Source: Candidatus Dechloromonas phosphorivorans (GTDB taxonomy: Bacteria > Pseudomonadota > Gammaproteobacteria > Burkholderiales > Rhodocyclaceae). From it: a DNA stretch of 64,000 nt. Each line of letters begins with the position of its first letter. The stretch's first letter is position 1. This document shows positions 35,299 through 55,088 of this stretch, piece after piece. Location of the stretch: NCBI GenBank assembly GCA_016709495.1, contig JADJMS010000015.1:11981-75980 (forward strand), read 5' to 3'. Under the pieces are notes generated by a model. It worked only from the letters and a program-made list of their open reading frames with translations. It searched no databases and was not told the DNA's origin. The translations under genes and the position numbers were made by a program.

Positions 35299-35339
35299 TT
35301 ACAGTCAGCCGGCCTTTTGAGTGTTGAAAACCAAGAAAT

Positions 35340-35379
35340 GCGCACGGAGTTTTGGCAAAATTGCCCTATTTCCGTGCGC
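35340..35379 (-). terminator. Nested stem-loop between the TonB-dependent receptor and PepSY genes
   Basis: GCGCACGGA ... TCCGTGCGC is a perfect 9-bp outer stem. It encloses GGCAA-AA-TTGCC. It may be an attenuator or terminator, and there is no clear U-tract. Confidence 0.45.
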
Positions 35380-35395
35380 CTTGGTCATGGTGAAA

Positions 35396-37534
35396 TTAGA
35401 ATTTCATGCGCAGTGACAACTCATAGGTCCGTGGGTTGGCAATCAGAACCTGGGTGTTGCCGTAGGCTGACTCCGCATAAAGCTCATCAGTGGCATTTCG
35501 CACTCTGAAACCTACGTCCAAAGCTTTGCTGACTTTGTAATCGGCTGACAAATCAAGGGTGGTGTAGGAAGGCAGTTCAAGGGTGTTGGCGTCGTTGATA
35601 TAGGCCTTGTCAACATGTCTCACCCAGCTGCCAAAACTCCAGGCTGCAGTCGGCATGAACTGAACGCCAAGATTGGCCATCCACTGCGGCACCAGACGCG
35701 GTGTATTGCCGCTTAGTGACACAGGCGGGTTGCCGGTTGAGTACTCATCGTAGCGAGCATGAACGTAGGCAATGTTGCCATCGATCTGCCAATGCTGAGT
35801 TGGCCTTAAGCCCAGGCTCAACTCAATACCTTGCGATGATTGCTGACCAACTGGCAAGCGGTTGGTTGGTTTGGCCGGATCAGGAACGAAGACATTTTTC
35901 TTTTCAATGTCATAAATAGCGGCCGTCCACTCGCCCTTGTTGCCCCAGAATCCCTGCTTTACGCCGATTTCAAATTGTTTCGCTGTTGTCAGATCCAATT
36001 GGCTCTGATTGCGATTGAGTACGAACAAGGTTCCACCCGGTTCGACAGCAGTTGCGTAGGATGCATAAAACGTAGTGTTTGGCGTCAGATCGTAAACGGC
36101 GCCGACTCTCCAAGAGTTGAAATTGTGAGTCTTGGACTCTTTCGGTGACCCAGCCTGATCGTGGTAAGTCCAATCAGTCTGGAAGCGATCATGACGCAGT
36201 CCACCGATCAATTTGAATTCCTTGGTTAGCGACAACTGATCCTCGGTGAACAGGGACCATTGATTGATGCTTACTTCGCGTGCCAATGACTTGTTGATGC
36301 GAGTGCCCGTGTTGAAATTAACGCTGGGTGGGTTGTAGGCATCGACAGTTTGCGTTCCCGGGAAGCCGTTACGTTCGCTCTTGAATTCGGTTCGATTGAT
36401 ATCCGCGCCTATCAGGAAACGATTGTCCAGCCCGCCAATTTTTCCTTTGAGCAAGCCTTCCAGCCGGTTACCGATCAACTGGTGATCATGATCAATATCT
36501 CCCCACGAGAAGCGCGTTACCGTGGGCTTAGCGCTCGCGTTGTAGCGGAACTCTGACACATCGCGCCAGTTGCGATAGGAGTCGTAGTAGTACATCTGAT
36601 TGCGCACCTCAAAGTCAGGTGTTGCCTGCCACTCGAGATTGCCGCGCAGCCAGGTGGTGTTCGAGGCATAGATGTTGTCAGTCAGGTTGTTGTAGTTAAT
36701 TCGGCGCAATGAGCGCTCAATCTTGCCGTTGACCAGCGGGGTTCCGTAATAGAAGTCGTTGACGTCATCTCGCATTTTGTCGAGCTCAAGGGTTAGCTTG
36801 AGGGTGTCGCTCAATTTAAAGAGGAGCGATCCGGTAAAGCGGTCCAGAGCGCCGCGTTCACCATCAACATAGCTGCCAAAGCGATTGGTGCTGATGTCTG
36901 CACGATATGCGACTGCATCATCTTTTATTGCCCCACCTTTGCCTACATGGAGGCGGTGCGAGTTGTAACTGGAGTATGCATAATCGATTTCAAAAGGCTG
37001 GGCTGCAAAACTCGGTGCGCGTGATATCAGGTTAACCGTTGCGCCGGTGCCGCCTTCTCCGTTGAGGACGGACGCGGGGCCGCGCAGAACTTCGATCCGG
37101 TCATAGTTGGCGGTATCGAGAATACGGGAAGACATGTTCGACCCACCGGGTACCCGCACGCCGTTATAGAGCCAGGTGACACCGTTTTCAATGAATCCGC
37201 GAGCTGAAAAGCCGACATGGGATGCACCGACTCGTGCGCCGTTAAGGCCGGCAACTTTGCTGACGGCCTCGACCATCGTCCGGTCACCACGCTCTTGCAT
37301 CGTTTCCTGGCTGATGACGTCGATGCTCGCCGGTATTTCCTTGATTGTGGTACCCAAGCGTGACCCCGTGCTTGCCGGAACGTCCAGCGGCATGACACGC
37401 AGGTCTCGCGCACCACTGACATTAACCGTCGAGAGCTCTTTGGTTTCTTCTGCTTGTGCAGACAAGTTACCAAGGCTACCCAATACCCCCAATAGCGCCA
37501 TCGCCACTGGCGATAGTCTGAATTGCTGCTGCAT
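35396..37534 (-). CDS. TonB-dependent siderophore receptor
   Basis: The internal ATG gives MQQQFRLSPVAMALLGVLGSLGNLSAQA. A plug domain (TonB-box region ELSTVNVSG) and a C-terminal ...YELSLRMKF are present. Confidence 0.9.
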   Translation of the reverse strand: MQQQFRLSPVAMALLGVLGSLGNLSAQAEETKELSTVNVSGARDLRVMPLDVPASTGSRLGTTIKEIPASIDVISQETMQERGDRTMVEAVSKVAGLNGARVGASHVGFSARGFIENGVTWLYNGVRVPGGSNMSSRILDTANYDRIEVLRGPASVLNGEGGTGATVNLISRAPSFAAQPFEIDYAYSSYNSHRLHVGKGGAIKDDAVAYRADISTNRFGSYVDGERGALDRFTGSLLFKLSDTLKLTLELDKMRDDVNDFYYGTPLVNGKIERSLRRINYNNLTDNIYASNTTWLRGNLEWQATPDFEVRNQMYYYDSYRNWRDVSEFRYNASAKPTVTRFSWGDIDHDHQLIGNRLEGLLKGKIGGLDNRFLIGADINRTEFKSERNGFPGTQTVDAYNPPSVNFNTGTRINKSLAREVSINQWSLFTEDQLSLTKEFKLIGGLRHDRFQTDWTYHDQAGSPKESKTHNFNSWRVGAVYDLTPNTTFYASYATAVEPGGTLFVLNRNQSQLDLTTAKQFEIGVKQGFWGNKGEWTAAIYDIEKKNVFVPDPAKPTNRLPVGQQSSQGIELSLGLRPTQHWQIDGNIAYVHARYDEYSTGNPPVSLSGNTPRLVPQWMANLGVQFMPTAAWSFGSWVRHVDKAYINDANTLELPSYTTLDLSADYKVSKALDVGFRVRNATDELYAESAYGNTQVLIANPRTYELSLRMKF

Positions 37535-37615
37535 GCAATTTACCCCTTCTCTAGTTATGACCAACAAAATCCCCGAGCAACCACAACGGTGGTGGTAGCT
37601 GAAAAACACCGGCGT

Positions 37616-38026
37616 CTAGCGCGCCGGTTCAGTTAAAAAGGCTATTTTTACGATGCTGGCGCGCTGTGCTGCGGCCATCACATCGGCGACTTTTTCGTAA
37701 ATCACCTTGCGGTCAGCGCGCAGGTGGAGTTCCGGCTGGCGCGGGCTGGCGGCGGCTAAGCGGGTGTCCAGCGCTGTGCGTTCAATGGCTTCGCCATTCC
37801 AGAAAATCTTGCCATCGACATCAATCGCCAGCTGAATGACTTCCGGCTTGTCATCAAGCTTGGTGGCGGTGACTTGCGGCAGATCGATGGGAACGGCCTG
37901 GTGAAAGAGCGGCGCCGTGATGATAAAAATAACCAGCAAGACCAGCATCACGTCGACCAGCGGTGTGGTGTTGATCTCGGCCATCGGCTGGGTCACGCCA
38001 GCTTCGTCAAAGCTTCCGAAAGCCAT
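37616..38026 (-). CDS. exbD: Biopolymer transport protein ExbD
   Basis: 136 aa. INTTPLVDVMLVLLVIFIITAP is the ExbD/TolR signature. Confidence 0.9.
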   Translation of the reverse strand: MAFGSFDEAGVTQPMAEINTTPLVDVMLVLLVIFIITAPLFHQAVPIDLPQVTATKLDDKPEVIQLAIDVDGKIFWNGEAIERTALDTRLAAASPRQPELHLRADRKVIYEKVADVMAAAQRASIVKIAFLTEPAR

Positions 38027-38028
38027 GA

Positions 38029-38763
38029 TCAGGCCTGCCGGCTGCTGCGGGCGGCAGCGATGTCGACCAGATTGACGTTGCCGCCAACGCGCACGCCGGT
38101 CGTCAGGTAGGCATGCAGGTCGTGGGCAAAGCCGTCGAGTTGCACGGCCACCAGACGGTTGGCGCGGGTGAAGGCGTTGTAGGCGAGGACGGCGGGAATG
38201 GCGACGAAAAGGCCGGCGGCAGTCATGATTAGCGCTTCGCCCACCGGGCCGGCGACCTTGTCGAGCACCACCTGGGTGGCACCGGAAAGGCCGACCAGCG
38301 CGTGGTAGATGCCCCAGACCGTGCCGAAGAGGCCGATGAATGGTGCAGTCGACCCGACAGAGGCGAGAAAAGTGAGTCCCTGCTCAATACGCGATTGGGA
38401 ATTGACGATGTGCGAGCGCATTGAGCGGGTGACGAATTCGCTGGCATTGACGCCGGCACCGATGCCGCGTGCGGCGTTCTGCTGATGCGCTTGGGCTGAG
38501 TGGGCGCCGGTCAGGGCGAGGCCGGCGAAAATTCCCGAAGGATCATCGCGGCGTAGCGCTTCGAGTGCTTCGGGCAGCGAATTGGCGCTCCAGAAGCCGT
38601 TCAGCGCCTTTTCCTGCGAACGCGAGGCGCGCCAGGTGGACATCATCTTGCTGAGAATGACTGTCCAGGAACTCAGCGAGAGCAGGGCCAGAATAATGGC
38701 GGTGGTGTGGGTGACCAGGTCGCCCTGATGCCAGAAGTGGGCGAGGCCCATTTGCGATTCCAT
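38029..38763 (-). CDS. exbB: MotA/TolQ/ExbB proton-channel protein ExbB
   Basis: ATG at 38763 follows AAGGGA just after the tonB stop. GSTAPFIGLFGTVWGI is the ExbB signature. Confidence 0.88.
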   Translation of the reverse strand: MESQMGLAHFWHQGDLVTHTTAIILALLSLSSWTVILSKMMSTWRASRSQEKALNGFWSANSLPEALEALRRDDPSGIFAGLALTGAHSAQAHQQNAARGIGAGVNASEFVTRSMRSHIVNSQSRIEQGLTFLASVGSTAPFIGLFGTVWGIYHALVGLSGATQVVLDKVAGPVGEALIMTAAGLFVAIPAVLAYNAFTRANRLVAVQLDGFAHDLHAYLTTGVRVGGNVNLVDIAAARSSRQA

Positions 38764-38776
38764 GTTTTCCCTTTCT

Positions 38777-39502
38777 TTACTCAAGTGCAAAGGTGATCGG
38801 AACGATCACCGAAGAATCAACTGTTTCGTCGCCGCGCTTGGCCGGCACAAAGCGCCAGTGCGTGACGGCATCAATGGCGGCGCTATCAAGGCGGGGGAAG
38901 CCGCTTGATTTGGAGATAGCGACATCCAGTGCATCACCTTTGGCGCTGACCCGGACTTTCAGCAAAACCTTGCCTTCCTCACCCTGGCGCCGTGCCAGAG
39001 GCGGGTAAATTGGCTTCGGGTTGTGCAGGTAATCAGCATCAAAGCGTGCAGCAACCAAAGGTGCTGGCGGCGCTGAGATGGCAGCGACTGGTTGCGGCGG
39101 CGGGGCCGGCGGTTGCGGTGCGACGACAAAACTGCTGGAGGTGTTGGCCGTGCTGTCCACGGCCAAAATGGGTTGCGGCTGAATTTGCGGACGGCGTACC
39201 TGAGGCACAGGTTTGGGGGGCGGCGGCAGCGGTTTCGGCGGCTCGATCTTCTTTTCTTCAGCGAGCGGCAGCAGACGGGCGCTGATGCTGGGCGGTAATT
39301 GAATCAGGTCATTTTTGACCGAGATGTACAACACGGCATAAAGCAGCAGGGCGTGCACCAGAATCGCCAGACCCCAGGTCAGCAGGCGCTCAACTGGTGT
39401 GGGCGCGGGTGTTGCCAGATGAAACGCGGGCAGCTCATCTGGTGCCTGGGTCTCATTGAGAATGGAGAAAGGTGGGGAGGCAGTCAAAACGTAAGAATTC
39501 AC
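38777..39502 (-). CDS. tonB: Energy transducer TonB
   Basis: Pro-rich linker KKIEPPKPLPPPPKPVPQVRRPQIQPQP. C-terminal TonB domain YPPLARRQGEEGKVLLKVRVSAKG. GTG start. Confidence 0.88.
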   Translation of the reverse strand: MNSYVLTASPPFSILNETQAPDELPAFHLATPAPTPVERLLTWGLAILVHALLLYAVLYISVKNDLIQLPPSISARLLPLAEEKKIEPPKPLPPPPKPVPQVRRPQIQPQPILAVDSTANTSSSFVVAPQPPAPPPQPVAAISAPPAPLVAARFDADYLHNPKPIYPPLARRQGEEGKVLLKVRVSAKGDALDVAISKSSGFPRLDSAAIDAVTHWRFVPAKRGDETVDSSVIVPITFALE

Positions 39503-39723
39503 TTATTTTGTGATTTGATTTTTGTCAAAAATTGTTATGAATCATGGGTTTGCGAGGGTTGGATTGTAGCGGCTGAAGAGCGGTTGCCCCTGCGACATGA
39601 TGTCGCACCCGAATCGTTGAAGTTCTTGTCTGCCGTCCCCTCTTGGCGCTATGACGGGCAGCGCTGGCATAATGTCGATATGAAAAAAATCATGGCAGCA
39701 GCCAATGAGCGAGGGGCGGGGAT

Positions 39724-41169
39724 GTGCTGAAGGTACTGGTCTTCATGCCAGTGCTGGGTGCCGGGCTGGTTGCCATTTTGCCTGGCCGTTTTGCCGGCTG
39801 GATGTGGCGCCTGGCCTTTTTCTTTGCACTGGCGGCGCTCGGCTACTCGTTCTGGCTGGCGGCCCATTTCGATCCGCTCGGCCCGGCGATCCAGATGCAC
39901 GAAAGCCGGCCGTGGAATGTGCGTCTCGGCTCGTATTTTGCCTTGGGCATCGACGGTATATCGCTGTCCATGCTGCTATTGACCGCATTGCTGACCATGA
40001 TCGCCGTGCTGATGTCGCGACGCATGGAGGATGGCAAGCGGCTCTATTTCACCCTGATCCTGCTGCTTGAGTCGGCGATGTTCGGGGTGTTCACCGCGCG
40101 CGATTGGTCCTTGTTTTACGTTTTCTGGGAAGCCACCTTGCTTCCGCTGTTCTTTCTCATTGATCGCCTGGGGGGCCTTAACCGGCAACGCGCGGCGCTC
40201 AATTTTTTCCTTTACACGCTGGGCGGCTCGGTTTTCATGCTGGTTGCCCTGCTCTTTCTCTATGACGCAGCACCCGGCCACAGTTTTGCGATGGGCGATA
40301 TGGCGGCGGGTGGGCGCGAACTGCCGTTAAACACCCAGTTGTTGATCTTCGCCGGCTTGTTCCTTGGTTTCGGCGTCAAGATGCCGGTTTTTCCTTTGCA
40401 CGGCTGGCTGCCGCTGGCGCACGTAGAAGCGCCTAGCCCGGTGTCGATTCTGCTTTCTGGCGTGCTGCTCAAAATGGGCGCCTATGGCCTGATTCGCGCT
40501 GCCGAAACACTGCCGGCGGCCTTGCTGGCAGCGCAGGACTGGTTGATGGTGATTGCCATGGTGAGTCTCCTTTACGGCGGCATCCTCGCCTGGCGTCAGC
40601 AGGATCTGAAGGCGATGGTCGCCTACTCGTCAATTTCGCACATGGGCGTCGTCTTGCTGGGCATCGCCACGCTTAACGTGACGGGCATGACCGGTGCTGT
40701 GATGCAAATGGTGGCGCATGGCCTGACGGCGGCAACCTTGTTTTTGATTGTTGGCCTGCTCTACCAGCGTACCCATAGTCGCGATCTGGCCGATTACGGT
40801 TCGCTGCTCGGCCGCGCGCCGCGCTTTGCCTTTTTCATTGCCTTTGGACTGCTTGCCGCCATCGGCTTGCCAGGGAGTGCCGGGTTTATTGCCGAGCTGC
40901 ATGTGCTGGTTGGCGGTTTCGGACGCTGGGGCGGCTGGGTGTTGATCGTTTGCTTGGGCATGCTGATCGGTGCAGCCTACGGCTTACGGGTGATCGGCCG
41001 GCTTTGCGGCAAGGGCGAGGCGATGACCATAAGCGACATGACGCGCACTGAAACGTCGGCGGCAGCGATTCTGGCGCTGGCGATTGTCGTGCTGGGCGTC
41101 TGGCCGGCACCCTTGCTTGATCTGATTGCCGGCAGTGTCGGGCGCATCGCCGGATTGTTCGGAGCCTGA
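39724..41169 (+). CDS. Complex-I antiporter-like subunit (NuoM/ND4-like, PF00361), first gene of the DabA-containing operon
   Basis: FYVFWEATLLPLFFLI and GFGVKMPVFPLHGWLPLAHVEAPSPVS carry the conserved Glu and Lys motifs of NuoM. GTG start after GAGGGG. Confidence 0.85.
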   Translation: MLKVLVFMPVLGAGLVAILPGRFAGWMWRLAFFFALAALGYSFWLAAHFDPLGPAIQMHESRPWNVRLGSYFALGIDGISLSMLLLTALLTMIAVLMSRRMEDGKRLYFTLILLLESAMFGVFTARDWSLFYVFWEATLLPLFFLIDRLGGLNRQRAALNFFLYTLGGSVFMLVALLFLYDAAPGHSFAMGDMAAGGRELPLNTQLLIFAGLFLGFGVKMPVFPLHGWLPLAHVEAPSPVSILLSGVLLKMGAYGLIRAAETLPAALLAAQDWLMVIAMVSLLYGGILAWRQQDLKAMVAYSSISHMGVVLLGIATLNVTGMTGAVMQMVAHGLTAATLFLIVGLLYQRTHSRDLADYGSLLGRAPRFAFFIAFGLLAAIGLPGSAGFIAELHVLVGGFGRWGGWVLIVCLGMLIGAAYGLRVIGRLCGKGEAMTISDMTRTETSAAAILALAIVVLGVWPAPLLDLIAGSVGRIAGLFGA

Positions 41170-41170
41170 G

Positions 41171-44100
41171 ATGGAATCTGCCGACAACGATCTGCCCATA
41201 CGCCAACGCCTGCAACACTGGGTCGAGCACTTGACGCATGTCTTGCCGGCTCAGGCGCCGATCCGCGATTTCGTGCATCACAACACCCTGCATGGCTTTC
41301 AGCACTTGCCTTTCCCGGAAGCGCTGGCGGCGGTTCACCGTCTGACTGGTGCGGCGACTTACTGGCCGGAGGCACGCTTTCAGGCGGCCTATGCGGCGGG
41401 GCGAATTTCGCCGGCGGATTTGCGCGAGGCTTTTGCCGATTCAGCCATTGAAGGGCTTGATGCGCCCGTCCTGCGTGCTTTAACGCGGCGTGATGTACTG
41501 CTCGCCAGTCTGCTGATGCCGACCGCGCAGGGCGAGCGGCGACTGGACTGGAATGAGCGCGAAGGGCTATTGGCTCGCGATAAAATTTTTGGCCGTTGTC
41601 GCGAGTTGACCGCAACAGATGAGGTTCCTGCCGGAATCTGGCAGGAAAGCGCCATGCAGAACTGGATTGCGCTCTGTGCCCGGGTGGGAAATGAATGGAC
41701 GCTGCGCAGCCTGCTCGAACATCTGACTGGCGAGGATGTGCTGGAACGGGTGCGTACTATTTTGCAGCGCCACATGGCAGCGCATCTGGATTTGGGTGTC
41801 GCGGCCTGGCGCAATCCGGCGCAGGCAGAGGGTTTTTTTGCTGCATGGCGAGCCAGTGCCGGTCTCGATGTGGCGTGGGAACTTGATGAGTTGCCCGGCA
41901 TTCATGACGAAATAGCCTATCTGCCGGCTGATCCGGTTGATGTGCTGGTCGATGAGTTGGCGCGGCTGATTCCGGATGAAGATTTGTGGCCGGGATATCT
42001 CGAGCGTCTGGCGCTTGAACTGCCGGGCTGGTCCGGTATGTTCCTTTGGCGCGACCAAAATCCGGCACGCGGCGATGGTACGCCAGTGGATATGCTCGAC
42101 TATCTTGCCGTGCGAGTTCTGCTCGAACGTCTGTTGTGCGAAGACCTGACCCGTCGCCTGACGGGCGCCGCAATGGAGTTCGATGAACTGCGCGGCTATT
42201 TCGCTGCCAATTTGGCCGAATTCCATGTCCGCGATGCCTTGCAGGGCGTGCCGTTGAGCGAAGACCTGCAGCACCGCGCCACCCATTTGCTGGCCTCGGG
42301 TGAGGGTATTCTGGCAGTCGACGACGATTGGCAGTTGCTGGCAGAAGAAATCTGGCAGCAACAGTGCGTGTCCGACTCACGGCAGCGCGCTGTTGCGCTT
42401 TACGAATTGCTGCGCGGCCTGGAATTTACCGCGGGCGATGCCGCCACCTTGACGGCTGAAGATGCGCAAAGCCTGCTGGAAATCGCCGCCAGCCTTGATC
42501 CTCTGGCCCGTGGGCAACTCTGGTTGCAGGCTTACGAACGCCATTATCGCGAAGAATTGTTCAGCGCCCTGACCGCCAATCATGGTCGCCATCCAGCACC
42601 CGGTTCGGTATCGGCGCAGGTCATCATGTGCATGGATGATCGCGAAGAAGGCACCCGTCGCCATCTGGAAGAAATCGCGCCGACGGTTGTCACTTACGGT
42701 GCGGCGGGATTTTTTGGCATCGCGATGTACTGGCAGGGACTGGATGATCCGACGCGAAGCGCGCTCTGTCCGATTGTCGTGCGCCCTGAACACCTCGTGC
42801 GCGAGCAGGCGTGCGATGCCGAGCTCGGCGAACAGCACGCGCAACGTCACGAAAACCGCTTGCTGTGGCGCGAGCGCCTTTATCAGGGAACCCGCAATGG
42901 CGTTCTGGCAGCCCCCGTGCTGACTGCACTGGCCGCACCCACCGCTTTGCTGGCACTGCTCTCCAATACCCTGGCTCCGGCCTGGATAGCAGATGCCGTA
43001 AGGCGTTGGCGAAGTCAGTATGAACGTCCGGTCACCACCCGTTTGCAACTGACCGCCGAAGCCGCTGCCGCCCCAGCCAGCGCCGATATGCCGCGCGATG
43101 GGTTTGACGACAAGGAGCAAGTCGAGCGCGTTGAGAACTTTCTGCGCAGCATTGGTCTGACGCAAAATTTCGCCCCGTTGATTCTCTTCTTTGGCCACGG
43201 CTCAGGCAGTCGCAATAACCCGCATCTCTCAGCCTACGACTGCGGTGCCTGCTCAGGTAAGCACGGCGGGCCGAACGCACGTGTTTTCGCAGCGATGGCC
43301 AATCGCCCGGCAGTGCGGGCCGGTCTGCTGGCGCGCGGGCTGGAAATTCCCAGCGGCGTGCTGGTTCATTGCCGCCGAGCACAATACTGGTGATGACAGC
43401 GTCGAGTGGTGTGACCTCGACGTTGTCCCGCCTGAGGTGGAAACGGCGCTCGATACGCTGGTCGGGCAGCTGGCCGGTGCGTGTCGTGCCGATGCTGCCG
43501 AGCGCTGTCGCCGCCTTGCTTGAGCACCGCCAGGCGCCTTCACCGTGGCAAGGGTTTGAGCACGTTCGTGGACGTGCCAACGACATTTCGCAGGCGCGGC
43601 CAGAACTCGGCCATGCAACCAATGCGGCGGCCTTTGTCGGGCGGCGGGAAATGAGTCGCGGTTTATTTCTTGATCGCCGGGTTTTCCTGATTTCCTACGA
43701 TCCGCTGGCTGATTTGAGCGGACAGATTGTCGAAAGCATACTGCTGGCGGTTGGCCCGGTTGGCGCCGGCATCGCCCTCGAATACTATTTTTCGACGGTC
43801 GATAACGAGCGCTTCGGCTGCGGCTCGAAGATCACCCACAACATCACCGGCCTGTTTGGCGTCATGGAGGGGGCGGATTCCGATCTGCGCACCGGCCTGC
43901 CCTGGCAGATGGTTGAAATTCACGAGCCGATGCGCCTGCTGGTTGTTGTCGAGCAGACACCGGCGGTGCTCACTGAAATCCTCGCGCGCCAGCCGGCTTT
44001 GCAAGAGCTGATCGGTAATGCCTGGATAATTTTGGCGGCAAAAGACCCGTTGACCGCAACAATTCAACAATATTGCCCGCGCCGGGGCTGGTTGCCGTGG

Positions 44101-44199
44101 ACTGGCCGTTCGGTGTTGCCGCAGGTGGCGCGTTCGCGTGACTGGTTTGCCGGCAGCAGTGAGCCACTGGCGCCGGCCATGTTGTTGGGGGCGGCATGA
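41171..44199 (+). CDS. dabA: DUF2309/UPF0753 protein (DabA / YbcC / MpsB family), ~1009 codons, with two frameshifts (~43360 and ~43518)
   Basis: N-terminal APIRDFVHHNTLHGFQHLPFPEA. CMDDRE (Cys487/Asp489). FFGHGSGSRNNPHLSAYDCGACSGKHGGPNARV (His676, Cys691). C-terminal ALEYYFSTVDNERFGCGSKITHNITGLFGVMEGADSDLRTGLPWQ. The three frames join cleanly. Confidence 0.88.
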
Positions 44200-45727
44200 T
44201 GGTAGATATGCTGCGCCATCTTCCCGACTGGGTTTGGCTGGTGCCGGGCTTGCCCCTGCTGGCGCTGAGCATCACCGGCTTGCGGGTACTGCTGGGCCGG
44301 GCGACGGGTGATGCCGCCGAACCGCTGACCGCGCGGCTTGCTTCGCTGGCTGCATTTGGCGGCCTGTTGCTTTTGCTGGCGCTGGATCTGCTGGCCGTGC
44401 TGGACGAAGTGCCTGGGCATCGCGTTGTCGCCTACTGGTTTTCCGGCAGCAATTGGCAGGGCAGTTTTTCCTATTTGATGGATGAGCTCTCGCTCAGTCT
44501 GGCCACCTTGGTCGCCTTGATCGGCTGGCTGGTAATGCGCTTTTCGGCCAATTACCTGCACCGCGAGGCGGGCTTTCATCGCTTCTTCATCATTCTGTCT
44601 TTCTTCCTGGCCGGCATCCAGCTTGTGTTGCTCGCCGGCAATGGTTTGCTCGCCTTCGTTGGTTGGGAAATGTGCGGCATGTCATCCTTCCTGCTCATTG
44701 GCTACGCCTGGCAACGACCGGTGGCAACCGGCAATGCCCTCTTTGCCTTTGTCACCAATCGCGGGGGCGATGCCGGTTTTCTCCTCGCTTTGGGGCTGGC
44801 AGCGAACTGGTTGGGCAGTTTTGATTGGCAGGCGATCAATCAATCAGGCGTGTTGACCCTGGTCAACGCTCGTTTGCTGGTGCTCGGCTTTGTCATTGCC
44901 GCGCTGGCCAAATCGGCGCAACTGCCGTTCACGCCGTGGATCAGTCGCGCGCTGGAGGGGCCAACGCCGTCATCGGCGATTTTTTACGGCGCAGTCATGG
45001 TCCATGCCGGTGTGTATTTATTGCTGCGTCTGTCGCCCTTGCTTGCCCAGGTGCCGGACGTCATGCTGGGTCTGGTGGCGGTTGGCTTGATGACCGCAAT
45101 CTATGCCTGGCTGTGCGGTTTGGTGCAGACCGATGTCAAATCGGCGCTGATTTTCGCCACGGTTTTTCAGGTGTCCTTGATGATCGTTGCCATCGGCCTG
45201 GGCTGGACGACACTGGCTACCGTGCATCTTGGTCTGCATGCCGCCTGGCGGGCCTGGCAGTTTTTGCTGGCGCCCTCCTGGCTGAGCTTGACCCGTGGTC
45301 GTCCGGCTCCGGCGCCAGCCTGGTTGCGCCAACGCCAGTGGCTCTATACCGCCGCGCGCTGCAACGTTTCTGGCTCGACAAGATAGCGGCCGATTTGCTG
45401 GTCAAACCCACCATGTCGTTTGCCCAGGATGCCCGTGGTTTGGAAGAAAACTTTATTGACCGCCTGCTCGGCGATCCCGGACGCGGCAAACCGGTGCATG
45501 TCGAGCGTCCGCTGGTCATGGCGGATGGTCTGCCCGGTCGAGCGCTGGCCAGCGTGTCGGAAATTCTGGAGCGGCTGGAAAATCGTCTGCTGCTGCGCGG
45601 TCGGGGCGGGTCGGCGGAGCAATTATTGCAGCGGTTGGGCAATTACCTGCGGATTGTTGAAAACCTGCTCGAACAGCCGCGCTATTTGATGATGGCGGTG
45701 ATGGCGACTTTTGTGGTGATCCTCTAA
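44196..45727 (+). CDS. dabB: NuoL/NdhF-like antiporter subunit (DabB-like, PF00361), frameshift ~45348
   Basis: FVGWEMCGMSSFLLIGYAW, NRGGDAGFLLALG and AKSAQLPFTPWISRALEGPTPSSA are NuoL motifs. ATGA overlap with dabA. A long amphipathic C-terminal segment precedes a final TM. Confidence 0.85.
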
Positions 45728-47227
45728 TGGGCGGTTTGTCAGAAATTTTCTGGAACGAACAGACGGGTCTGCCGCTGTTGCTGATGCTGCAATTGCTCCC
45801 CTTGCTGGGTGCTTTGCTCGTTCTGGCCCTGGGCGAGCGTTTGAGCGCCGTGCTGGTCGGCAAAGTCTTTGCGCTGGCTGAATTGTTGCTCGGCATCGTC
45901 GCCGTCAGTCGAATCAACCCAACTTTGCCTGCCCTGCAACTGGCCGAACGTTTTGAGCCGTTGGCCTATCATGTTGCGGTCGACGGCCTGAGTATGGTCT
46001 TTTTATTGCTCACCGCCTTGCTCACCTTTTTGATGACCCTGTACGGCATGAGCCGCGGCATGATCTCTCCGGGCCGGCTGTTCGCCGTGCTACTGCTCGC
46101 TGAAGCCGGGCTGGTCGGCATGCTGGTCACAGTCAATGTCGCCTGGTTTGCCGCGTTTTTCGGCGCTCGAATTATGGGCGGTGACTTTTCTGCTTAGGCG
46201 CTGGGCTTCTTCACGCGCCGAAATTCAGGCCTTGGCCCGTTTCGTTCAATATCAGGCTTTCGGCTGGGTGCTCTTTGCCGCTGGCTGCCTGGTGCTGGGC
46301 TGGGGCCATGCCGATGCCACCGGCGGTTTCTGGAGCTTTGATCTCTTTGATCTTGCCGAGCACCTGACCTCTGGCAAATACCAGACGGCAGCTTTCTACC
46401 TTCTGTTCTACGGCCTGGCCGTTCGCACCCCGCTTTTCCCGCTACATGGCTGGTTGCCGAACATGGCGCAACATGGACTGATTGCGGTGGCGCCGGCGCT
46501 GATGGTCGGCGTCAAGGTCGGTATTTACGGCATGCTGCGCTTTGTCCTGCCGCTGACGCCGGATGCCGTTCAATACTGGCAGCCCTACGTCGTCGGCTTC
46601 GCCATGGCCGGCGTTTTCTTCACCGCAGCGCTCGCCTTCCAGCAAACCAACCTGCGCCGTCTGCTCGCTTTTGCCGTGGTCAGCCACACCAGCCTGCTGG
46701 TCATTGGTGTTTTCAGCCTGCACGAATCGGGCATTCAGGGGGCGGTTCTGCTCGCCGCCAACTTCGGACTGGCGGTGACCGGCATGTGGTTCATCGTCGG
46801 TTTCGTCTTCCGCCGCACCGGTACGACAGAGTTGAACGAACTCTCCGGCCTCTTCGAGCGTATCCCTTTTCTCGCCATTGCCTTCCTCAGCTTTGGTCTG
46901 GCCATCGTCGGCATGCCCGGTACGCCGGGTTTCGATGCTGCTCACCTGATTCTCGAAGGCTCTATCGACAGTTTTGGTGCCTTGCCGACGGTTGCGACGG
47001 CGCTCGGTAACGTCGCTGCCGCCGGTTTTCTGCTCTGGGCTTTTCAGCGCGCCTTTCTCAGTCAGGCACGGCAGGGCGGCCATGATGTCGATAAAACGCT
47101 GCCGATGGAATATGTCGTCTGCGGCATTGCCCTGGCCGCCATGCTGGCCATCGGCTTCTTCACCGAGCCCTGGCTCTATCTGACAGAAACGGCCAGTCAG
47201 GCGATGGCGGCGAGGTTTCATCGATGA
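45727..47227 (+). CDS. Divergent NuoM/NuoN-like antiporter subunit (PF00361), frameshift in the T-run 46156-46160
   Basis: Has VDGLSMVFLLLTALL and LAVRTPLFPLHGWLPNMAQHGLIAV, where the Lys position is Arg and AHxEAP is degenerate. TAATG overlap upstream and ATGA overlap downstream. Confidence 0.8.
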
Positions 47228-48679
47228 GCATCCCGCTGCTTACACTGATGATCTTCACGCCGCTGGCCGGCGCAGCACTGCTCTGGTTGATGCCGGTCCG
47301 GCTTTCCCGCTACGTGACTGCTGCGGCCATGCTGCTCACCTTGTCAGCCGCCTCGGCGGTGATCGTAGCTTATGACCCGGCTGGTACGCTTCCAGCTGCT
47401 GGAACGGGTATCGTGGATTGCCAGTCTCAATGTGCAGTATCTTGTTGCGGTCGACGGCCTTTCAGTGCTCTTTTTGCCGGCTACCGCGCTACTTTTTCTC
47501 GGTTCGCTGGTCGCCAGCTGGAACGCTGTCGCCGATGCGCCGCGCTTTCATTACAGCCTGCTCCTCTTGTTCATGACCTGCACGCTGGGGATTTTCTGCG
47601 CCCTCGACAGCATCCTCTTTTTCTTTTTCTGGGAACTGACGCTAATCCCCCTCTACTTCCTGCTTGGGCGCTGGGGTGTAGTCAGCGGTTGTCAGCGCGT
47701 CGCGGCGCGTTACGTCCTGATCATGCTCAGTGCTGGTCTGCCCTTACTGGTTGCTTTCGTGATTCTGGCGGCCAGCCAGCCGGTGCCGACATTCGATGTG
47801 ATTGTCTTGCTCGCAGCGCCTTTGCCGCGCAGTACACAGAGCGCTGTCTTTCTGTTGTGTTTGATCGGTTTTGCCGTCAAAGTGCCGCTGGTGCCCTTGC
47901 ATACTTGGTTGCCGCAGTTTGCGCTGGCAGCGCCAGGCTCGCTGACGGCGCTGTTGGTGGGACTGAAACTGGGCGCCTACGGCCTGATCCGCTTTGCCAT
48001 TCCACTAGCGCCGGATGCAGCGCTTGATCTGCACTGGCTGCTCGCCGGCCTCGGTACGCTGACCCTGATTTACGGTGCCGTCAGCATGCTCGCCCAAAGC
48101 AATCTGCGCGTTGCGCTGGCCTACGCCAGCATCTGCCACGTTGGCCTCGCCGTGCTCGGTCTGGCGGCCTTTACGGCGCAAGCGGTACAGGGCGCGGTAG
48201 CCTTGTTGCTCAGTTTCGCGGTGGCCACCGGTGGCGCTTTGCTGCTGCTCGAATTTCTCCGCCAACGCACTGGGTCGACCGATGTGCACAGTCTTGGTGG
48301 TGCGGCCAAAACCATGCCACTACTGGCCAGCGGCCTGTTCGTCTGTGGCATGGCCGGGGTGGGCATGCCGGGAACCAGCAGTTTCCCCGGCGAGTTCCTG
48401 CTTATTCTGGCCGCCCTGCAAAGCCATACCGGTGCCGGCATGGCTGCCTTGTTCGGCCTTTCCATTGCTGCCGGCGGCTTCCTCTCGCTCTACCGCAAGG
48501 CTTTTTTTGGGCCAGTAGTCCACCGTGAAGTGGCTGATGCCCGCGATCTGCGGCCACGTGAATGGGCGGTGCTGATTATCGTCATTGCGCTGGTCGCCAG
48601 TATTGGTCTCTATCCGATTCCCTGGCTGGAAATCGTTCGTCCCTCCGCCGAAGCCTGGGCCGCCGGGCTGGTGCGCTAA
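47224..48679 (+). CDS. NuoM/NuoN-like antiporter subunit (PF00361), frameshift ~47385
   Basis: Has VDGLSVLFLPATALL, FFFWELTLIPLYFLLGRWG and GFAVKVPLVPLHTWLPQFALAAPGS. Confidence 0.8.
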
Positions 48680-48694: not shown

Positions 48695-49219
48695 ATGTCG
48701 AAACTATTTGAGCTGCACCGTGCCATTGATGCGCGCGTCGACAACATCCGTGACAATCGTCCCGACTGGCTTTGCGGTAAAGGTTGCGACAATTGTTGCC
48801 GACGACTCGCGGAGGTGCCGCAACTGACGGCAGCGGAATGGGACTTGCTGCGCCGAGGGTTGGGCACTTTGCCCGCCGATCGCCTGCATGAAATCAGTCG
48901 CGACATGGCGGCGCTAAGCAGCCAAAGCGCGCGGCCGCTTGTTTGCCCCCTGCTTGAAGAGTCCTCCGGCGCCTGTCCGGTTTATCTCCAACGGCCCATT
49001 GCCTGCCGTACCTACGGTTTTTACGCCCAGCGCGAGCTGGGGCTTTATTGTCACGAGATCGAAACCCAGGTAAGCAATGGTGTTCTAGCGGATGTTGTCT
49101 GGGGTAATCACGATGCAATCGATCAGCAGCTCAAAGTTCTGGGTGAAAGCAAGCCGCTGACCGAGTGGTTTTTATCCTGGGAACACAACGAACAAATACA
49201 AAAGGCAAAGCAGCAATGA
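48695..49219 (+). CDS. YkgJ-family CxxCxxCC zinc/iron-chelating domain protein
   Basis: Has WLCGKGCDNCCRRL plus the later CPLL...CPVY...CRTYG motifs. Starts 15 nt after the last antiporter-like gene. Confidence 0.7.
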   Translation: MSKLFELHRAIDARVDNIRDNRPDWLCGKGCDNCCRRLAEVPQLTAAEWDLLRRGLGTLPADRLHEISRDMAALSSQSARPLVCPLLEESSGACPVYLQRPIACRTYGFYAQRELGLYCHEIETQVSNGVLADVVWGNHDAIDQQLKVLGESKPLTEWFLSWEHNEQIQKAKQQ

Positions 49220-50238
49220 CATTTACCCGCAAACCCGATGTTTGCCAGACCACTGGTTCAGCCGAGCTGGCGATGCTGGATGTCTATATGCCAATGATGA
49301 AATCGGCAGCAATCATTTCTGCCGGGCAGTTAGGGCTGTTCGAGGCGCTGGCCAACGGGCCGCTGGCACTTAATGCGCTGGCCGAGAAAATTCAGTCCAG
49401 TGCGCAAGGAACCGTTGCACTGGCTGATTTCTTGGTGACGTTGGGCTATCTGGAAAAACAGGGCGAGTCATTCACCAACACACCCAGCACGCAACGCTGG
49501 TTTACCAGTCAGGGTCAGATCGATTACACGCCCGGCCTGCTGTGGACGAAGGAAGCCTGGCCGATGATGGGCGCGCTGGGTGAGGCGGTGCGCAGTGGCA
49601 AGCCGGAGAAAACATTGTGGCAGGCGATGGTCGAGAAACCGCAACTCGGTCATCTGTTCGCTTCGTACATGGCCGCTTTCGCGCAGGATTTAGGCCCAGA
49701 TCTGATCAAGCATGTGCCGGTTGCCCCTGAGCAAACCCGCCTGCTCGATCTCGGCGGCTCGCACGGCCTGCACTCAATTCGGTTCTGCCAGCACTATCCG
49801 CAGCTCAGCGCGCAAATTGTCGATCTGCCCAGCGCTTTGATGCAAACCCCGGCCAGCATTGCCCAGGCGCAATTGTCAGACCGTATCACCTTGAGTCCGG
49901 GCGATTTGCTCGAACATGACTGGGGCCGCGAGCATGATCTGGTCTTCTATCTCTCGGTCGCGCATAACCATACGGCGGCAGACAATCGCCGGGTGATTCA
50001 GCGCATTGCTGAATCACTGAGGCCCGGCGGCTTGCTGGTCATCCATGAATATCTGGCCGAACGACCGCTCAATGCGCTGCAGGCAGCCTTCCGCCTGACT
50101 TTGCTCTTTGAAACAGGGACGCAGACCCATGCGCCGGAAGATTACGCCGAGTGGCTAAGCGCCGCCGGATTTACCTCGATGACGCGCATCGATCTTGATC
50201 CGCTTGAAAAGGGTTCGCTGATCCTGGCGCGGCGCTAG
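49216..50238 (+). CDS. Class I SAM-dependent O-methyltransferase (Methyltransf_2-like)
   Basis: ATGA overlap with the upstream gene. RLLDLGGSHG is the SAM-binding motif I, and there is an N-terminal dimerisation-like domain. Confidence 0.75.
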   Translation: MTFTRKPDVCQTTGSAELAMLDVYMPMMKSAAIISAGQLGLFEALANGPLALNALAEKIQSSAQGTVALADFLVTLGYLEKQGESFTNTPSTQRWFTSQGQIDYTPGLLWTKEAWPMMGALGEAVRSGKPEKTLWQAMVEKPQLGHLFASYMAAFAQDLGPDLIKHVPVAPEQTRLLDLGGSHGLHSIRFCQHYPQLSAQIVDLPSALMQTPASIAQAQLSDRITLSPGDLLEHDWGREHDLVFYLSVAHNHTAADNRRVIQRIAESLRPGGLLVIHEYLAERPLNALQAAFRLTLLFETGTQTHAPEDYAEWLSAAGFTSMTRIDLDPLEKGSLILARR

Positions 50239-50240
50239 TC

Positions 50241-50582
50241 TCACAGTTTCTTGACGAATTCCGACTTCAACTGCATGGCGCCAATGCCGTCAATTTTGCA
50301 GTCGATGTCATGGTCACCGTCGATCAGGCGGATGTTCTTGACCTTGGTGCCAACCTTGACGACGGATGAAGAGCCCTTGATCTTGAGATCCTTGATCACC
50401 GTCACGCTGTCGCCATCCTGCAGCACGTTGCCGTTGGAATCTTTCCAGACGCGCGCTTGTTCGACATTTTCGGCCGCGCCATCCTTGCTCCATTCATGAG
50501 CACATTCCGGGCAAACGTACATATCGCCTTGCTCGTAGGTGTATTCCGATTTGCAGGCCGGGCAGTTGGGTAAAGCACTCAT
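50241..50582 (-). CDS. phnA: PhnA/YjdM zinc-ribbon protein
   Basis: [31 protein letters not shown]...[25 protein letters not shown] is highly characteristic. Confidence 0.92.
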
Positions 50583-50594: not shown

Positions 50595-52286
50595 TTAATA
50601 ATCTTCGTCACTGCCGCCCATCAGGCTCGGCAGCAAAATGTAGGCGCGCTTGAGGGCGCTGGTCAGGTCGACGCAAACGTTGTCGTCGCCCAGGTGATCG
50701 ATGAAGCCGGAGCGATAAAGCAGCGAGCCGGGCTGTGAATTGAGACCACAGACGAGCAGCGTGCAGCCGCGTTTTTGCAATTTGTCACGCAGGCTTTCGA
50801 GGCCTTCAAGGCCGGTTGTGTCGAGTTGAATCAGGCGGGCCATGTCGAGAATGACGACTTCCGGATGGCCGGCGGATGGGTCAAGCAGTTCTTCCAGCTT
50901 GTTCACCGCGCCAAAGAACAGCGAACCGAACAGCTGCCAGGCGGCAACGCGCATTGTCCCGTCCGGGTAGAGAAACTGTGGCTCGTCTGCTTCCTCGGTC
51001 AGCGGCAGGCGCTCGATGCGCGTCAGTTCCGACATGCGATAGATGAAGAACAGGCTGGCCAGCACCATGCCAAGTTCGACGGCGATGGTCAGGTCGAAAA
51101 CCACGGTGACAAAGAAGGTGACGAGCAGAATCACGCGGTAATTGTAGGTGTAGCGGCGCAGCTCCAGAAAATGGTGCCATTCAGCCATGTTGACCGCAAC
51201 AACCATAACGATGGCCGACAAGGTGGCAAGCGGCACATAGGAGGCCAGCGGTGCAGCGATAAGTACAATCCCGAGCAATACCAGCGCGTGGATGATGCCG
51301 GCAATCGGCGTCCGTCCGCCGGTCTTGACGTTGGTCGAGGTGCGGGCAATGGCGCCGGTTGCGGCAAAGCCGCCAAACAGGGGGGCGGCAATATTGGCCA
51401 GGCCTTGGGCGACCAATTCCTGATTGGGGTCGTGGCGGTCGTCGATCTGGCTATCGGCGACGCGCGCCGAGAGCAGTGATTCGATGGCGCCAAGCAAGGC
51501 AATGGTGATGGCTGGCGAGATCAGCTTGCCGAAATCGTGGATCGACAGGCTGGGGAAGCCGATATTGGGCAGCTCCTGCGGGATACCATTGAAGCGGCTA
51601 CCGATGGTTTCGACCGGTAGATTGAACAGAAATGAAACCAGCGTGCCGACAATAAGTACAACTAACGGCCCTGGCGCGCGGCGCATGAAGGCAAAGCGTT
51701 GCGCCAGACGATTGTAGGAGAGCAGGAAAACGAAGCAGACCGAGGCCAGCGCCAGCGTTGGCAGATCAACGGTGTGGGCATTGGCGGCGAGAGTCTTGAT
51801 CCGGCCAAAGAATTCGGCGGGCAGGTTGTCGATTTGCAACCCGAAAAAATCCTTTATCTGGGCGAGAAAAATCACCACGGCAATACCGTTGGTGAAACCG
51901 ATGACGACGGTCACCGGGATGAAGCGGATCAGTTGCCCCATGCGCGCCAGCCCCATCGCCAGCAAAAACACGCCGGCCAGCATGGTGGCGCCCATCAGGT
52001 TGGCAAAGCCGTGAATGGCGACAATGCCGTAAATGATGGGTATGAAGGCGCCGGTTGGGCCGCCGATTTGTACGCGCGACCCGCCAAAAAGAGAGGTAAT
52101 CAGGCCGGCGATGATCGCTGTCCAGATACCGGCAGCCGGCGAGCAACCCGAGGCAATCGCGAAGGCCATGGCCAGGGGCAGGGCGAGAACACCAACCGTT
52201 ATCCCGGAGGCGAGATCCTTGCCGAACTGTGCTTTGTTGTAGGTGGGCAGGCAATCCAGCAGCTTGGGGTGAAAGGCGATTTTCAT
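50595..52286 (-). CDS. SulP-family anion transporter with a C-terminal STAS domain
   Basis: 563 aa. FGKDLASGITVGVLALPLAMAFAIASG is the SulP N-terminal motif. The C-terminus EVVILDMARLIQLDTTGLEGLESLRDKLQKRGCTLLVCGL is STAS. Confidence 0.88.
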   Translation of the reverse strand: MKIAFHPKLLDCLPTYNKAQFGKDLASGITVGVLALPLAMAFAIASGCSPAAGIWTAIIAGLITSLFGGSRVQIGGPTGAFIPIIYGIVAIHGFANLMGATMLAGVFLLAMGLARMGQLIRFIPVTVVIGFTNGIAVVIFLAQIKDFFGLQIDNLPAEFFGRIKTLAANAHTVDLPTLALASVCFVFLLSYNRLAQRFAFMRRAPGPLVVLIVGTLVSFLFNLPVETIGSRFNGIPQELPNIGFPSLSIHDFGKLISPAITIALLGAIESLLSARVADSQIDDRHDPNQELVAQGLANIAAPLFGGFAATGAIARTSTNVKTGGRTPIAGIIHALVLLGIVLIAAPLASYVPLATLSAIVMVVAVNMAEWHHFLELRRYTYNYRVILLVTFFVTVVFDLTIAVELGMVLASLFFIYRMSELTRIERLPLTEEADEPQFLYPDGTMRVAAWQLFGSLFFGAVNKLEELLDPSAGHPEVVILDMARLIQLDTTGLEGLESLRDKLQKRGCTLLVCGLNSQPGSLLYRSGFIDHLGDDNVCVDLTSALKRAYILLPSLMGGSDEDY

Positions 52287-54119: not shown

Positions 54120-54121
54120 TC

Positions 54122-54618
54122 ATGCTGCGCCAGATTCTGCTTTGCCTGTTTTTTGTTACCAGCACCGGTTTGCTGGCTGCTGAGGAAGCGCCCCTCGTCG
54201 AGATTTATATGCCTTCACCCTGTCTGGCCTGCATTGACTGGGGTTCCTACCTGACCGACAAGGGTTTCAAGGTGAGTTACAAGGAAACGGCGGACATGGA
54301 TGCGGTCAAACGCCGGCTCAAAGTACCGAAGGATGTCGAGTCGGTCCATACGGCGGTGGTTGGCGGCTATTTTGTCGAAGGGCATGCCTACGCCGAGGAT
54401 ATTCGCGAAGCTGCTGCGTGACAAACCCAAGGCACGGGGAATTGCCGTCGCCGGGTTTGCCGCGTGGCGCGCCGGGGCGCGAACAGTCAAATCCAACCTG
54501 CGAAACAGCCTGCACGACCCTGGATAATACGACAGGCGAGCGCGATATTCGCCGTGAATTATTCAATACCATACTGGTCAAGCCGGATGGCACGACCAGT
54601 ATCTGGGCGCGCCACTGA
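54122..54618 (+). CDS. DUF411 (CopG-like periplasmic metal-binding) protein, full-length copy with two 1-nt insertions (~54405 and ~54452)
   Basis: Signal peptide, then PCLACIDWGSYLTDKGFKV...SVHTAVVGGYFVEGHAYAEDIR. The frame then shifts to KLLRDKPKARGIAV and again to PGLPRGAPGRE...KPDGTTSIWARH. Alignment to the copy at 55850-56229 pinpoints the extra bases. Confidence 0.7.
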
Positions 54619-54775: not shown

Positions 54776-55028
54776 ATGACTGCGATTAGTGACCTGCTTG
54801 ACGGCTTTAATCTAATAACTCTTCTGGATAACGTTTTCAGCTCATGGCTCTCTTTCTGTCTAAGTTTAAGGCTTCGGAGCGTCTAAATGTTCTGGGATGA
54901 TTCAATCGGCAACAACTGTTAACGACGCCATATTCAGAATAAGGACGTATGTCGACTTTCTTTACAGTTCTCGTGACGAAGAAACGCGATGCTGTGCAAC
55001 TTTATGATTAAATTGATAAAAAAACATA

Positions 55029-55044: not shown

Positions 55045-55088
55045 TAATTATTTTGCGATTTTGCATTTTTGCCAAAAGGGAAATTCAA

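Follow-up and report, generated by a model that had tools for sequence, protein, structure and literature searches.

A conserved five-gene operon of the DAB family combining DabA with four antiporter-like subunit genes in Candidatus Dechloromonas phosphorivorans

We analysed a stretch of 64,000 nt (the window) from Candidatus Dechloromonas phosphorivorans (GCA_016709495.1, contig JADJMS010000015.1, positions 11,981-75,980 of the forward strand), in which positions 39724-48679 of the plus strand hold five co-oriented, coupled genes in the order NuoM-type (g1), dabA, NuoL-type (g3), NuoM-type (g4) and NuoM-type (g5). The genes were called from an open reading frame (ORF) listing and a Pfam search of the window, and the junctions were read directly off the sequence: TGA-G-ATG at 41167/41171 between g1 and dabA, ATGA at 44196 between dabA and g3, TAATG at 45725-45729 between g3 and g4, and ATGA at 47224 between g4 and g5. 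An earlier note on this DNA had described five translationally coupled genes on one strand, and the ORF map, the Pfam matches and all four junctions agree with that description. The operon genes are listed below (aa, amino acids).

39724-41169, + strand: g1, NuoM-type antiporter-like subunit, 481 aa, GTG start, intact; PF00361, Pfam E-value 1e-69
41171-44199, + strand: dabA, long-form DabA, PF10070/DUF2309, 1008 aa once repaired
44196-45727, + strand: g3, DabB-lineage NuoL-like subunit, 509 aa once repaired; PF00662 and PF00361
45727-47227, + strand: g4, divergent NuoM-type subunit, 499 aa once repaired; PF00361
47224-48679, + strand: g5, NuoM-type subunit, 485 aa once repaired; PF00361

In the window, dabA is split over two ORF fragments, which matched PF10070 with E-values of 2e-145 and 2e-73. 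The sole intact operon ORF is g1; the four other genes are frameshifted, and an ORF-based reading of the window needs frame repair. A metagenomic contig (L001), 92.7% identical over 16.6 kb and carrying intact genes of 481, 1008, 509, 499 and 485 aa, served as the frame reference, and the repaired proteins were used in downstream analyses of the operon.

The zinc site of DabA resembles that of beta-carbonic anhydrases and consists of C487, D489, H676 and C691, the Cys, Asp, His and Cys ligands by which a PF10070 DabA is recognised; together with R491 these residues were invariant in 73 sequences. Against DabA2 of H. neapolitanus (PDB 9rd0_A) the protein aligned with an E-value of 2e-68 and with the zinc-ligand motifs in register. 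A carbonic-anhydrase fold was supported by an AlphaFold2 model with a mean predicted local distance difference test score (pLDDT) of 81.9, for which Foldseek returned CsoSCA as the only significant PDB match in a structure set that contained neither 9rd0 nor DAB1. This match is consistent with the published structures, as CsoSCA was named the closest structural homologue of DabA in the DAB1 paper (bioRxiv 10.64898/2026.05.01.722082) and two beta-carbonic-anhydrase-like domains were described in DabA in the DAB2 paper (PMC13144422). A hydrophobic hairpin lies at ~577-618, where residues 577-601 form the sole strongly hydrophobic stretch of the matching region and the model places helices at 580-601 and 603-618; this predicted helix-loop-helix probably represents the membrane-inserting finger or elbow of DAB systems. 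An additional helical insert at ~364-445 sets the long form apart from DAB2-type DabA, and there is also a conserved tail at its C-terminus.

Three of the four PF00361 proteins exceeded the 263.8-bit cut-off of the NCBIfam NDH_I_M subfamily model TIGR01972, with scores of 464 bits for g1 (scored on its L001 ortholog), 278 bits for g4 and 388 bits for g5, and fell below the cut-off in every NCBIfam equivalog model. E. coli NuoM resembles each of them more closely than NuoN, NuoL or the other two do, mutual identity being ~30%, and the best PDB matches of g1 were NuoM/ND4/NdhD (E-value 3e-82). Because they passed TIGR01972 and stand nearer to NuoM than to NuoN, we classed all three as NuoM-type, and by sequence they appear to be ancient NuoM-type paralogs. 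The typing in the earlier note was thus retained for g1 (NuoM-like) and g3 (NuoL-like), and its label "NuoM/N-like" for the last two genes was replaced.

The residues of the proton pathway are complete in g1, which keeps E136, K219, K250 and E391 (E144, K234, K265 and E407 of E. coli NuoM; invariant in 72/72 orthologs), and in g5, which keeps the canonical E138, K220, K249 and E391 (53/53 orthologs). In g4, the canonical Glu of transmembrane helix (TM) 5 is replaced by Ala, with Glu or Gln two residues further on in 52 of 54 orthologs, the TM7 Lys by Arg (R233) and the TM12 Glu by Ala or Val, while the TM8 Lys is retained as K263. A first residue count had suggested that g4 was a dead, DabC-like structural subunit; this idea was dropped when the neighbouring columns were found to hold R233, K263, D403, H406 and E410, all invariant in the 54 orthologs. 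The charge network of g4 is thus remodelled under strong constraint and has not decayed.

As its NuoL-like PF00361 partner, DabA has g3 adjacent to it, with conserved proton-pathway residues E158, D192, K239, H344 and H348, and with Y264 and R352 in place of H254 and K342 of NuoL. In E. coli numbering, E144, D178, K229 and H338 were found in 62/62 orthologs and H334 in 57/62. The neighbour-joining tree placed g3 as sister to the DAB2-type DabB of a Methylomicrobium locus (L046), and the Y254/R342 signature is common to both, which on sequence grounds puts g3 on the DabB branch of the NuoL-like family. Only residues ~9-368 of g3 matched NuoL/ND5/NdhF models and PDB chains. Its AlphaFold2 model is confident for TM1-11, of which Foldseek superposed ~350 residues on NuoL with a root-mean-square deviation of ~2 Å. 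Past TM11 there are ~130 residues forming conserved non-membrane or amphipathic helices followed by a short conserved hydrophobic helix, PRYLMMAVMATFVVIL, whereas the same region in the DAB2-type DabB of L046 comprises 248 residues with several TM helices. The membrane domain of g3 therefore stops at TM11, in contrast to the ~15 TM helices of a typical DabB, and sequence and model together indicate a DabB that lost TM12-15. For these C-terminal helices confidence in the model is low (pLDDT 45-60).

One genome per GTDB species was scanned with the DabA alignment, which yielded at least 594 confirmed DabA relatives, and the best 80 of these (DabA identity 40-88%) were analysed as loci by calling ORFs in each and matching them to the five reference proteins. 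A DabA fragment matched at least 120 database clusters of ~1008-aa DabA at 59-94% identity, mostly from Dechloromonas, Azonexus and other Rhodocyclales, and Dechloromonas denitrificans carries the same five genes in the same order, with a DabA that is 63% identical. Across the 80 loci the best match of each PF00361 paralog was its positional counterpart. The order g1-DabA-g3-g4-g5 was kept in 48 of the 50 loci with enough contig on both sides, so the arrangement is far beyond chance. Stop-to-stop spacing was uniform (g3 ~1.52-1.58 kb, g4 1.49-1.60 kb, g5 1.45-1.65 kb) and too tight to accommodate further genes for small Nuo or Mrp subunits. Because the four PF00361 orthogroups were each monophyletic, with similar internal topologies in the neighbour-joining tree, the four paralogs seem to have been inherited as a block. 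A lack of conserved linkage between DabA and three or more PF00361 genes had been named by the earlier note as the result that would defeat its proposal; gene order and congruent trees instead describe a single module.

The two exceptions among the 50 loci were a fragmented locus and a Thiothrix locus with a duplicated DabA-g3 pair. In the latter, a Thiothrix metagenome-assembled genome (MAG; L030, ~8457-23141), the tandem duplication gives the order g1-DabA-g3-DabA-g3-g4-g5, and the second DabA is 39% identical to the query. At the Methylomicrobium locus mentioned above (L046, Methylomicrobium lacus CP169217), a DAB2-type pair (3265-7784, minus strand) divergently adjoins a five-gene operon (8475-17975); with ORF boundaries as called, the pair consists of a DabA of 871 aa and a DabB-like ORF of 676 aa with TM helices past TM11. 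The two DAB forms, side by side in one genome, offer a natural comparison pair.

The 80 loci came from Rhodocyclales (Azonexus, Dechloromonas, Accumulibacter), Nitrosomonadales, Methylococcales, Thiotrichales, Chromatiales and Magnetococcales, and their hosts further include Thiobacillus, Sulfurimicrobium, Nitrotoga, Nitrosomonas, Thiothrix, Thiolinea, Thiodiazotropha, Sedimenticolaceae and Chromatiaceae. They comprise sulfur-, ammonia-, nitrite- and methane-oxidising as well as phosphate-accumulating bacteria, and most of the other hosts of the five-gene operon are chemolithoautotrophs or methanotrophs. The earlier note had placed the locus in an apparently heterotrophic betaproteobacterial context; synteny with Dechloromonas denitrificans upheld the second half by showing a host of the Rhodocyclales, and heterotrophy is a property that 64 kb cannot establish.

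By its DabA and DabB-lineage subunits the locus is, judged from sequence, a DAB-family system that is real, widespread and uncharacterised. Characterised DABs have an AB or ABC composition, and here five genes are conserved, four of them PF00361. The earlier note had taken the described pumps to be two-component, which is incorrect for DAB1, a DabABC complex with a half-size NuoM-like DabC (bioRxiv 10.64898/2026.05.01.722082). With DAB2 (DabAB; H. neapolitanus Hneap_0211/0212, Tcr_0853/0854 and Staphylococcus MpsAB) the locus shares the Cys-Asp-His-Cys site and membrane-inserting hairpin of PF10070 and a NuoL-like PF00361 partner that retains Glu in TM5, Lys in TM7 and His in TM11, as well as the Tyr/Arg signature of DAB2-type DabB. 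DAB2 is, however, a 1:1 heterodimer of a 15-TM DabB and a DabA of ~830 aa, whereas the DabA studied here has ~1008 aa with its insert and tail, g3 lacks TM12-15, three NuoM-type genes are added and the order is M-A-B-M-M instead of B-A. DAB1 (H. neapolitanus Hneap_0907-0909; Thermocrinis albus for the electron cryomicroscopy (cryo-EM) structure) is similar in having a long DabA (1046 aa in H. neapolitanus DabA1) upstream of a NuoL-like gene and an extra membrane subunit, DabC, that sits where NuoM does beside NuoL. DabC, half as large as NuoM and assigned to no Pfam family, is hydrophobic at the positions of the NuoM proton-pathway residues; the three extra proteins of the present locus are full-length PF00361 members, two with complete canonical residues and one with an invariant remodelled set.

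The same neighbourhood had been noticed at low resolution by Klimchuk et al. in 2017 (COGNAT; PMC5700660), whose "clade C" of YbcC/DUF2309 (COG3002) has a nuoL homologue downstream of ybcC and further NuoM (COG1008) and SulP (COG0659) genes nearby; the window and the related loci have this gene content. The authors speculated that more membrane subunits would allow more ions to be translocated (PMC5700660). Theirs was a remark in a software paper that predates the assignment of a carbonic-anhydrase function. Neither the number and order of the subunits nor their residues or taxonomic distribution were treated there, no connection with DAB was drawn, and the energetic direction proposed was the reverse. 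In the DAB papers searched (the Desmarais et al. preprint and the structure papers on DAB1 and DAB2), pumps of two or three subunits are the only forms described, and in the literature searched on DUF2309/DabA with Dechloromonas, Accumulibacter or NuoM the five-gene form appeared only in COGNAT, though subscription-only papers might differ. The claim of an undescribed variant therefore holds for the subunit-level five-gene DAB form in the DAB papers searched, and not for the neighbourhood, which was remarked upon in 2017 (PMC5700660).

A conceptual parallel is found in the cyanobacterial NDH-1MS and NDH-1MS' complexes (NdhF3/NdhD3/CupA/CupS and NdhF4/NdhD4/CupB), in which a zinc-dependent subunit for CO2 hydration is likewise borne by a NuoL-type and a NuoM-type membrane subunit, where a chain of antiporter-like subunits ends. 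Those complexes differ in being redox-driven through a full NDH-1 core and in that CupA is unrelated to DabA; g3 scored 130 bits against the ndhF3_CO2 model TIGR01960 (cut-off 589), and no Ndh or Nuo core genes were found at the locus. The complex I membrane arm (NuoL-M-N) and Mrp antiporters have in common with the locus the PF00361 fold and several antiporter-like subunits side by side, and perhaps also an amphipathic clamp at the C-terminus of the L subunit. The locus differs from both by having no NuoN-type subunit, no NuoA/H/J/K, no MrpB/C/E/F/G and no redox module, by an L-type subunit truncated after TM11 and by extra subunits that are all M-type. All NuoL, NuoM and NuoN equivalog models scored far below their cut-offs, and Mrp models reached 80-160 bits against cut-offs of 540-1100. 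NuoA/H/J/K and Q- or N-module genes were absent from the window flanks and the 80 related loci, and small Mrp ORFs (MrpB/C/E/F/G) from within and beside the operon. With the tight spacing, these results bear out the statement of the earlier note that the locus is neither Nuo nor Mrp.

We consider it fairly likely that the locus encodes a five-subunit, DAB-family, energy-coupled vectorial carbonic anhydrase that traps CO2 as HCO3-. In the DAB1 and DAB2 structures, DabA sits on DabB with its elbow displacing TM12-15, protons passing through DabB control whether the buried zinc site can be reached, and DabC takes the NuoM position (bioRxiv 10.64898/2026.05.01.722082, PMC13144422). By extension, the five proteins would assemble into a single complex in the membrane, a "mini membrane arm" free of redox chemistry, whose assembly, order, stoichiometry and direction we infer from these relatives. 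DabA would dock on g3, and g4 and g5 (and g1) would pack laterally on g3 as NuoM does on NuoL, perhaps held in place by the amphipathic helices and the hydrophobic end helix at the C-terminus of g3. Inward H+ flow through two or three antiporter-like modules, and not one, would then drive the gating cycle of the carbonic anhydrase. More than one H+ would be spent per CO2, which could give a stronger or higher-affinity pump, steeper HCO3- gradients or function at low proton-motive force. By analogy, a free-standing L-M-M chain energising a vectorial carbonic anhydrase, close to what the earlier note had proposed, is plausible. A more detailed picture, which we think somewhat less likely than not, has a single redox-independent arm in which a truncated DabB, g4 as a remodelled connector and g1 and g5 as canonical proton modules make up a multi-proton CO2 pump. 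Two or three proton-translocating units would be serially coupled to one buried carbonic-anhydrase site, and the pump would exceed DabAB in driving force or affinity.

Several points weigh against this interpretation. Conservation of the operon establishes functional linkage and is not proof that the NuoM-type proteins physically assemble with DabA and g3. One H+ per CO2 already allows ~1000-fold accumulation, and the need for extra modules is not obvious. As g3 is without the TM12 half of the normal proton path, a route for protons across it is hard to explain, and its C-terminal helices could, from the model, be cytosolic DabA-binding helices and not a lateral clamp. In the sequence as it stands, only one of the five genes is intact. 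Two loci outside the 50, L047 and L059, also break the five-gene pattern. L047 has an orphan long-form DabA (4132-7185) with no PF00361 neighbour, lying among DNA ligase, cyclophilin, CheW-like/response-regulator and GGDEF genes; in L059 (1232-14567), ~7 kb with two AAA-ATPase genes separates DabA from a g3-like gene.

The main rival to a single five-subunit pump, which we regard as unlikely, is that the operon encodes two machines: DabA and g3 would be a self-sufficient DAB pump, and the three NuoM-type proteins a separate, co-regulated cation/proton transporter that might export surplus cytoplasmic H+ or exchange Na+. Characterised DABs function as AB or ABC complexes, g1 lies upstream of dabA and apart from g4 and g5, and the DAB1 model has each cycle loading the cytoplasm with protons that must be handled, all of which would fit such a division. 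However, we know of no free-standing transporter built solely of NuoM-type subunits, and Mrp needs MrpA and five small subunits that are absent here. The loss of TM12-15 from g3 suggests dependence on neighbouring subunits, and the four orthogroups coevolve congruently and were unseparated in 48/50 loci.

Much less probable is a function other than CO2 uptake, in which interconversion of CO2 and HCO3- would be coupled to ion export or pH homeostasis, or Na+ would be used instead of H+. The COGNAT authors proposed that an exergonic reaction drives ion export, with more subunits moving more ions (PMC5700660), and SulP, a frequent neighbour, could import HCO3-. Against this, hydration and dehydration of CO2 are near equilibrium and cannot power several ion translocations, the characterised homologues DAB1, DAB2 and MpsAB consume proton-motive force to accumulate inorganic carbon, and characterised DabA has the same active-site residues.

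We give still less credence to the reading that six indels have inactivated the operon in the source genome, leaving a cluster of decaying pseudogenes. Relative to L001, uncompensated indels were located in dabA (+1 at ~43352 and +1 at ~43510-43535), g3 (+2 at 45356/45359), g4 (+1 at 46158) and g5 (-2 at 47389). All six within-gene uncompensated indels of the 16.6-kb alignment fall in the operon, the other one (52367) being apparently intergenic, and one repair of dabA leaves a TGA codon; this codon vanishes when the second dabA indel is placed a few bases upstream. Frameshifts also occur elsewhere in the window in two genes for essential enzymes, namely leuS (leucyl-tRNA synthetase, ~4380-4935, minus strand; at least two near the N-terminus, ~4520-4900) and metG (methionyl-tRNA synthetase, ~59780-60250, minus strand; one near 59900), and in a DUF411 gene (~54098-54800, plus strand; near 54400). 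The ratio of nonsynonymous to synonymous substitution rates (dN/dS) between the window and L001 was 0.026-0.094 across the five operon genes, as low as in the flanking genes, and the remaining ORF layout of the window is normal. For these reasons the indels are most likely assembly or sequencing errors and not gene decay, and the operon, read in this way, is probably functional in the source organism. Operon-specific decay, suspected from the first L001 alignment, was dropped on the basis of the leuS, metG and DUF411 frameshifts and the very low dN/dS. Finally, the extra PF00361 genes might be assigned to respiratory complex I or an Mrp system beside a DabAB pair, as the exceeded generic NuoM cut-off and the public annotation as NADH dehydrogenase or Mnh subunits could suggest. 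This idea is effectively refuted by the absence of NuoA/H/J/K, Q-module and MrpB/C/E/F/G genes from the 80 loci, by overlapping genes with no spare room, by the low equivalog NuoM and NuoL scores and by an order conserved over the three proteobacterial classes sampled.

The cryo-EM structures of DAB1 and DAB2 recently gave DAB pumps a mechanistic model in which only two- and three-subunit forms were considered, and these pumps are candidates for CO2-uptake engineering. Dozens of species at least, and perhaps several hundred, carry the five-gene form. Among them are bacteria that matter for phosphate removal (Accumulibacter, Dechloromonas), nitrification (Nitrosomonas, Nitrotoga), methane oxidation (Methylococcales) and sulfur oxidation (Thiobacillus, Thiothrix, Thiodiazotropha), as well as Magnetococcales. 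If the five proteins form one complex, the H+/CO2 stoichiometry assumed for inorganic-carbon uptake in these hosts would change, and the complex would be the simplest natural redox-free model for long-range coupling among neighbouring antiporter-like subunits, a question posed by complex I. The public labels of NADH dehydrogenase or Mnh for the membrane genes of the operon mislead metabolic reconstructions.

Across the family, the commonest conserved neighbour was a gene for a SulP transporter, which 27-29 of the 80 loci have within 10 kb, in many cases immediately upstream and in the same orientation. Related examples are L043:5129-7252, L055:6235-8424 and L077:11030-12616, and some copies (~705-730 aa) have a charged insert of ~100 aa in mid-protein, possibly a coiled coil. 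In six loci a protein of ~355 aa is encoded directly after g5. Its sequence has a CMDGR motif, joined in four of the six copies by HRGC, in the manner of the CxDxR...HxxC motifs of beta-carbonic anhydrases, and reached a weak, sub-threshold 19.6 bits (cut-off 21.5) against the catalytic domain of CsoSCA. By its sequence the protein could represent a carbonic-anhydrase family not yet recognised, with a link to the module. Four loci of Thiobacillus, Sulfurimicrobium or Tepidiphilus type have, upstream of SulP and the operon, a 186-aa hexapeptide-repeat protein (left-handed beta-helix), which we judged to be gamma-carbonic-anhydrase-like. As SulP and these carbonic-anhydrase-like genes adjoin it, the neighbours point to a role of the module in inorganic-carbon metabolism or acquisition. 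Histidine kinases and sigma-54 response regulators also recur near the operon. The positions of the carbonic-anhydrase-like neighbours are as follows.

L077:9866-10933, L081:17960-19039 and L083:17969-19048, + strand: ~355-aa CxDxR...HxxC protein, co-oriented, directly after g5
L073:18126-19190, L051:14945-15997 and L035:18433-19539, convergent: ~355-aa CxDxR...HxxC protein
L043:324-884, L045:1652-2269, L025:155-715 and L020:5423-6025: 186-aa beta-helix protein

The flanks of the operon in the window contain the features below.

39503-39723, 221 bp: intergenic region between divergent tonB and g1, from the ORF map and sequence
48695-49219, + strand: CxxCxxCC-domain gene (Pfam), beginning 15 nt past g5
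49216-50238, + strand: O-methyltransferase gene (Pfam)
50241-50582, - strand: YjdM (Pfam), convergent with the operon
50595-52286, - strand: SulP/STAS anion transporter (Pfam), convergent, 1.9 kb downstream of the operon

The 221-bp gap is the presumed promoter region of the operon; a scan of it for consensus sigma-70 promoters gave no match, a promoter/terminator scan gave no signal above shuffled controls, and scans for Rfam families and tRNAs returned nothing. The genes tonB-exbB-exbD and one for a TonB-dependent receptor lie upstream in divergent orientation. At 34051-39502 (minus strand), between a response-regulator gene and g1, genes for a PepSY_TM protein, the TonB-dependent receptor and ExbD/ExbB/TonB were found; Dechloromonas denitrificans has an AhpC gene at the position of the tonB cluster and an otherwise similar flanking gene order. 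This PepSY_TM/TonB block is a lineage-specific insertion or replacement. Downstream, the CxxCxxCC and O-methyltransferase genes occur only in the closest relatives (L001-L003 and L005) and are absent from the Dechloromonas locus L004 and the other loci. They may be co-transcribed with g5 in the lineage of the window and are outside the conserved module. The best NCBIfam matches of the SulP protein in the window were DauA (472 bits) and BicA (279 bits), both below their cut-offs.

The region 54001-56000 has a G+C content of 0.496, compared with 0.55-0.62 elsewhere in the window, and includes a 631-bp stretch without an ORF of at least 90 aa and a PEP-CTERM protein gene at 55053-55685; it may mark the edge of an acquired segment. 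Proteobacterial-type g1, DabA and g3 were also found on a contig labelled as a Candidatus Bathyarchaeota MAG (L053), and proteobacterial-type DabA and g3 as proteins labelled as from a Bacteroidota MAG (P0033/P0229). These copies, binned with an archaeon and with Bacteroidota, most likely reflect binning contamination and not lateral transfer.

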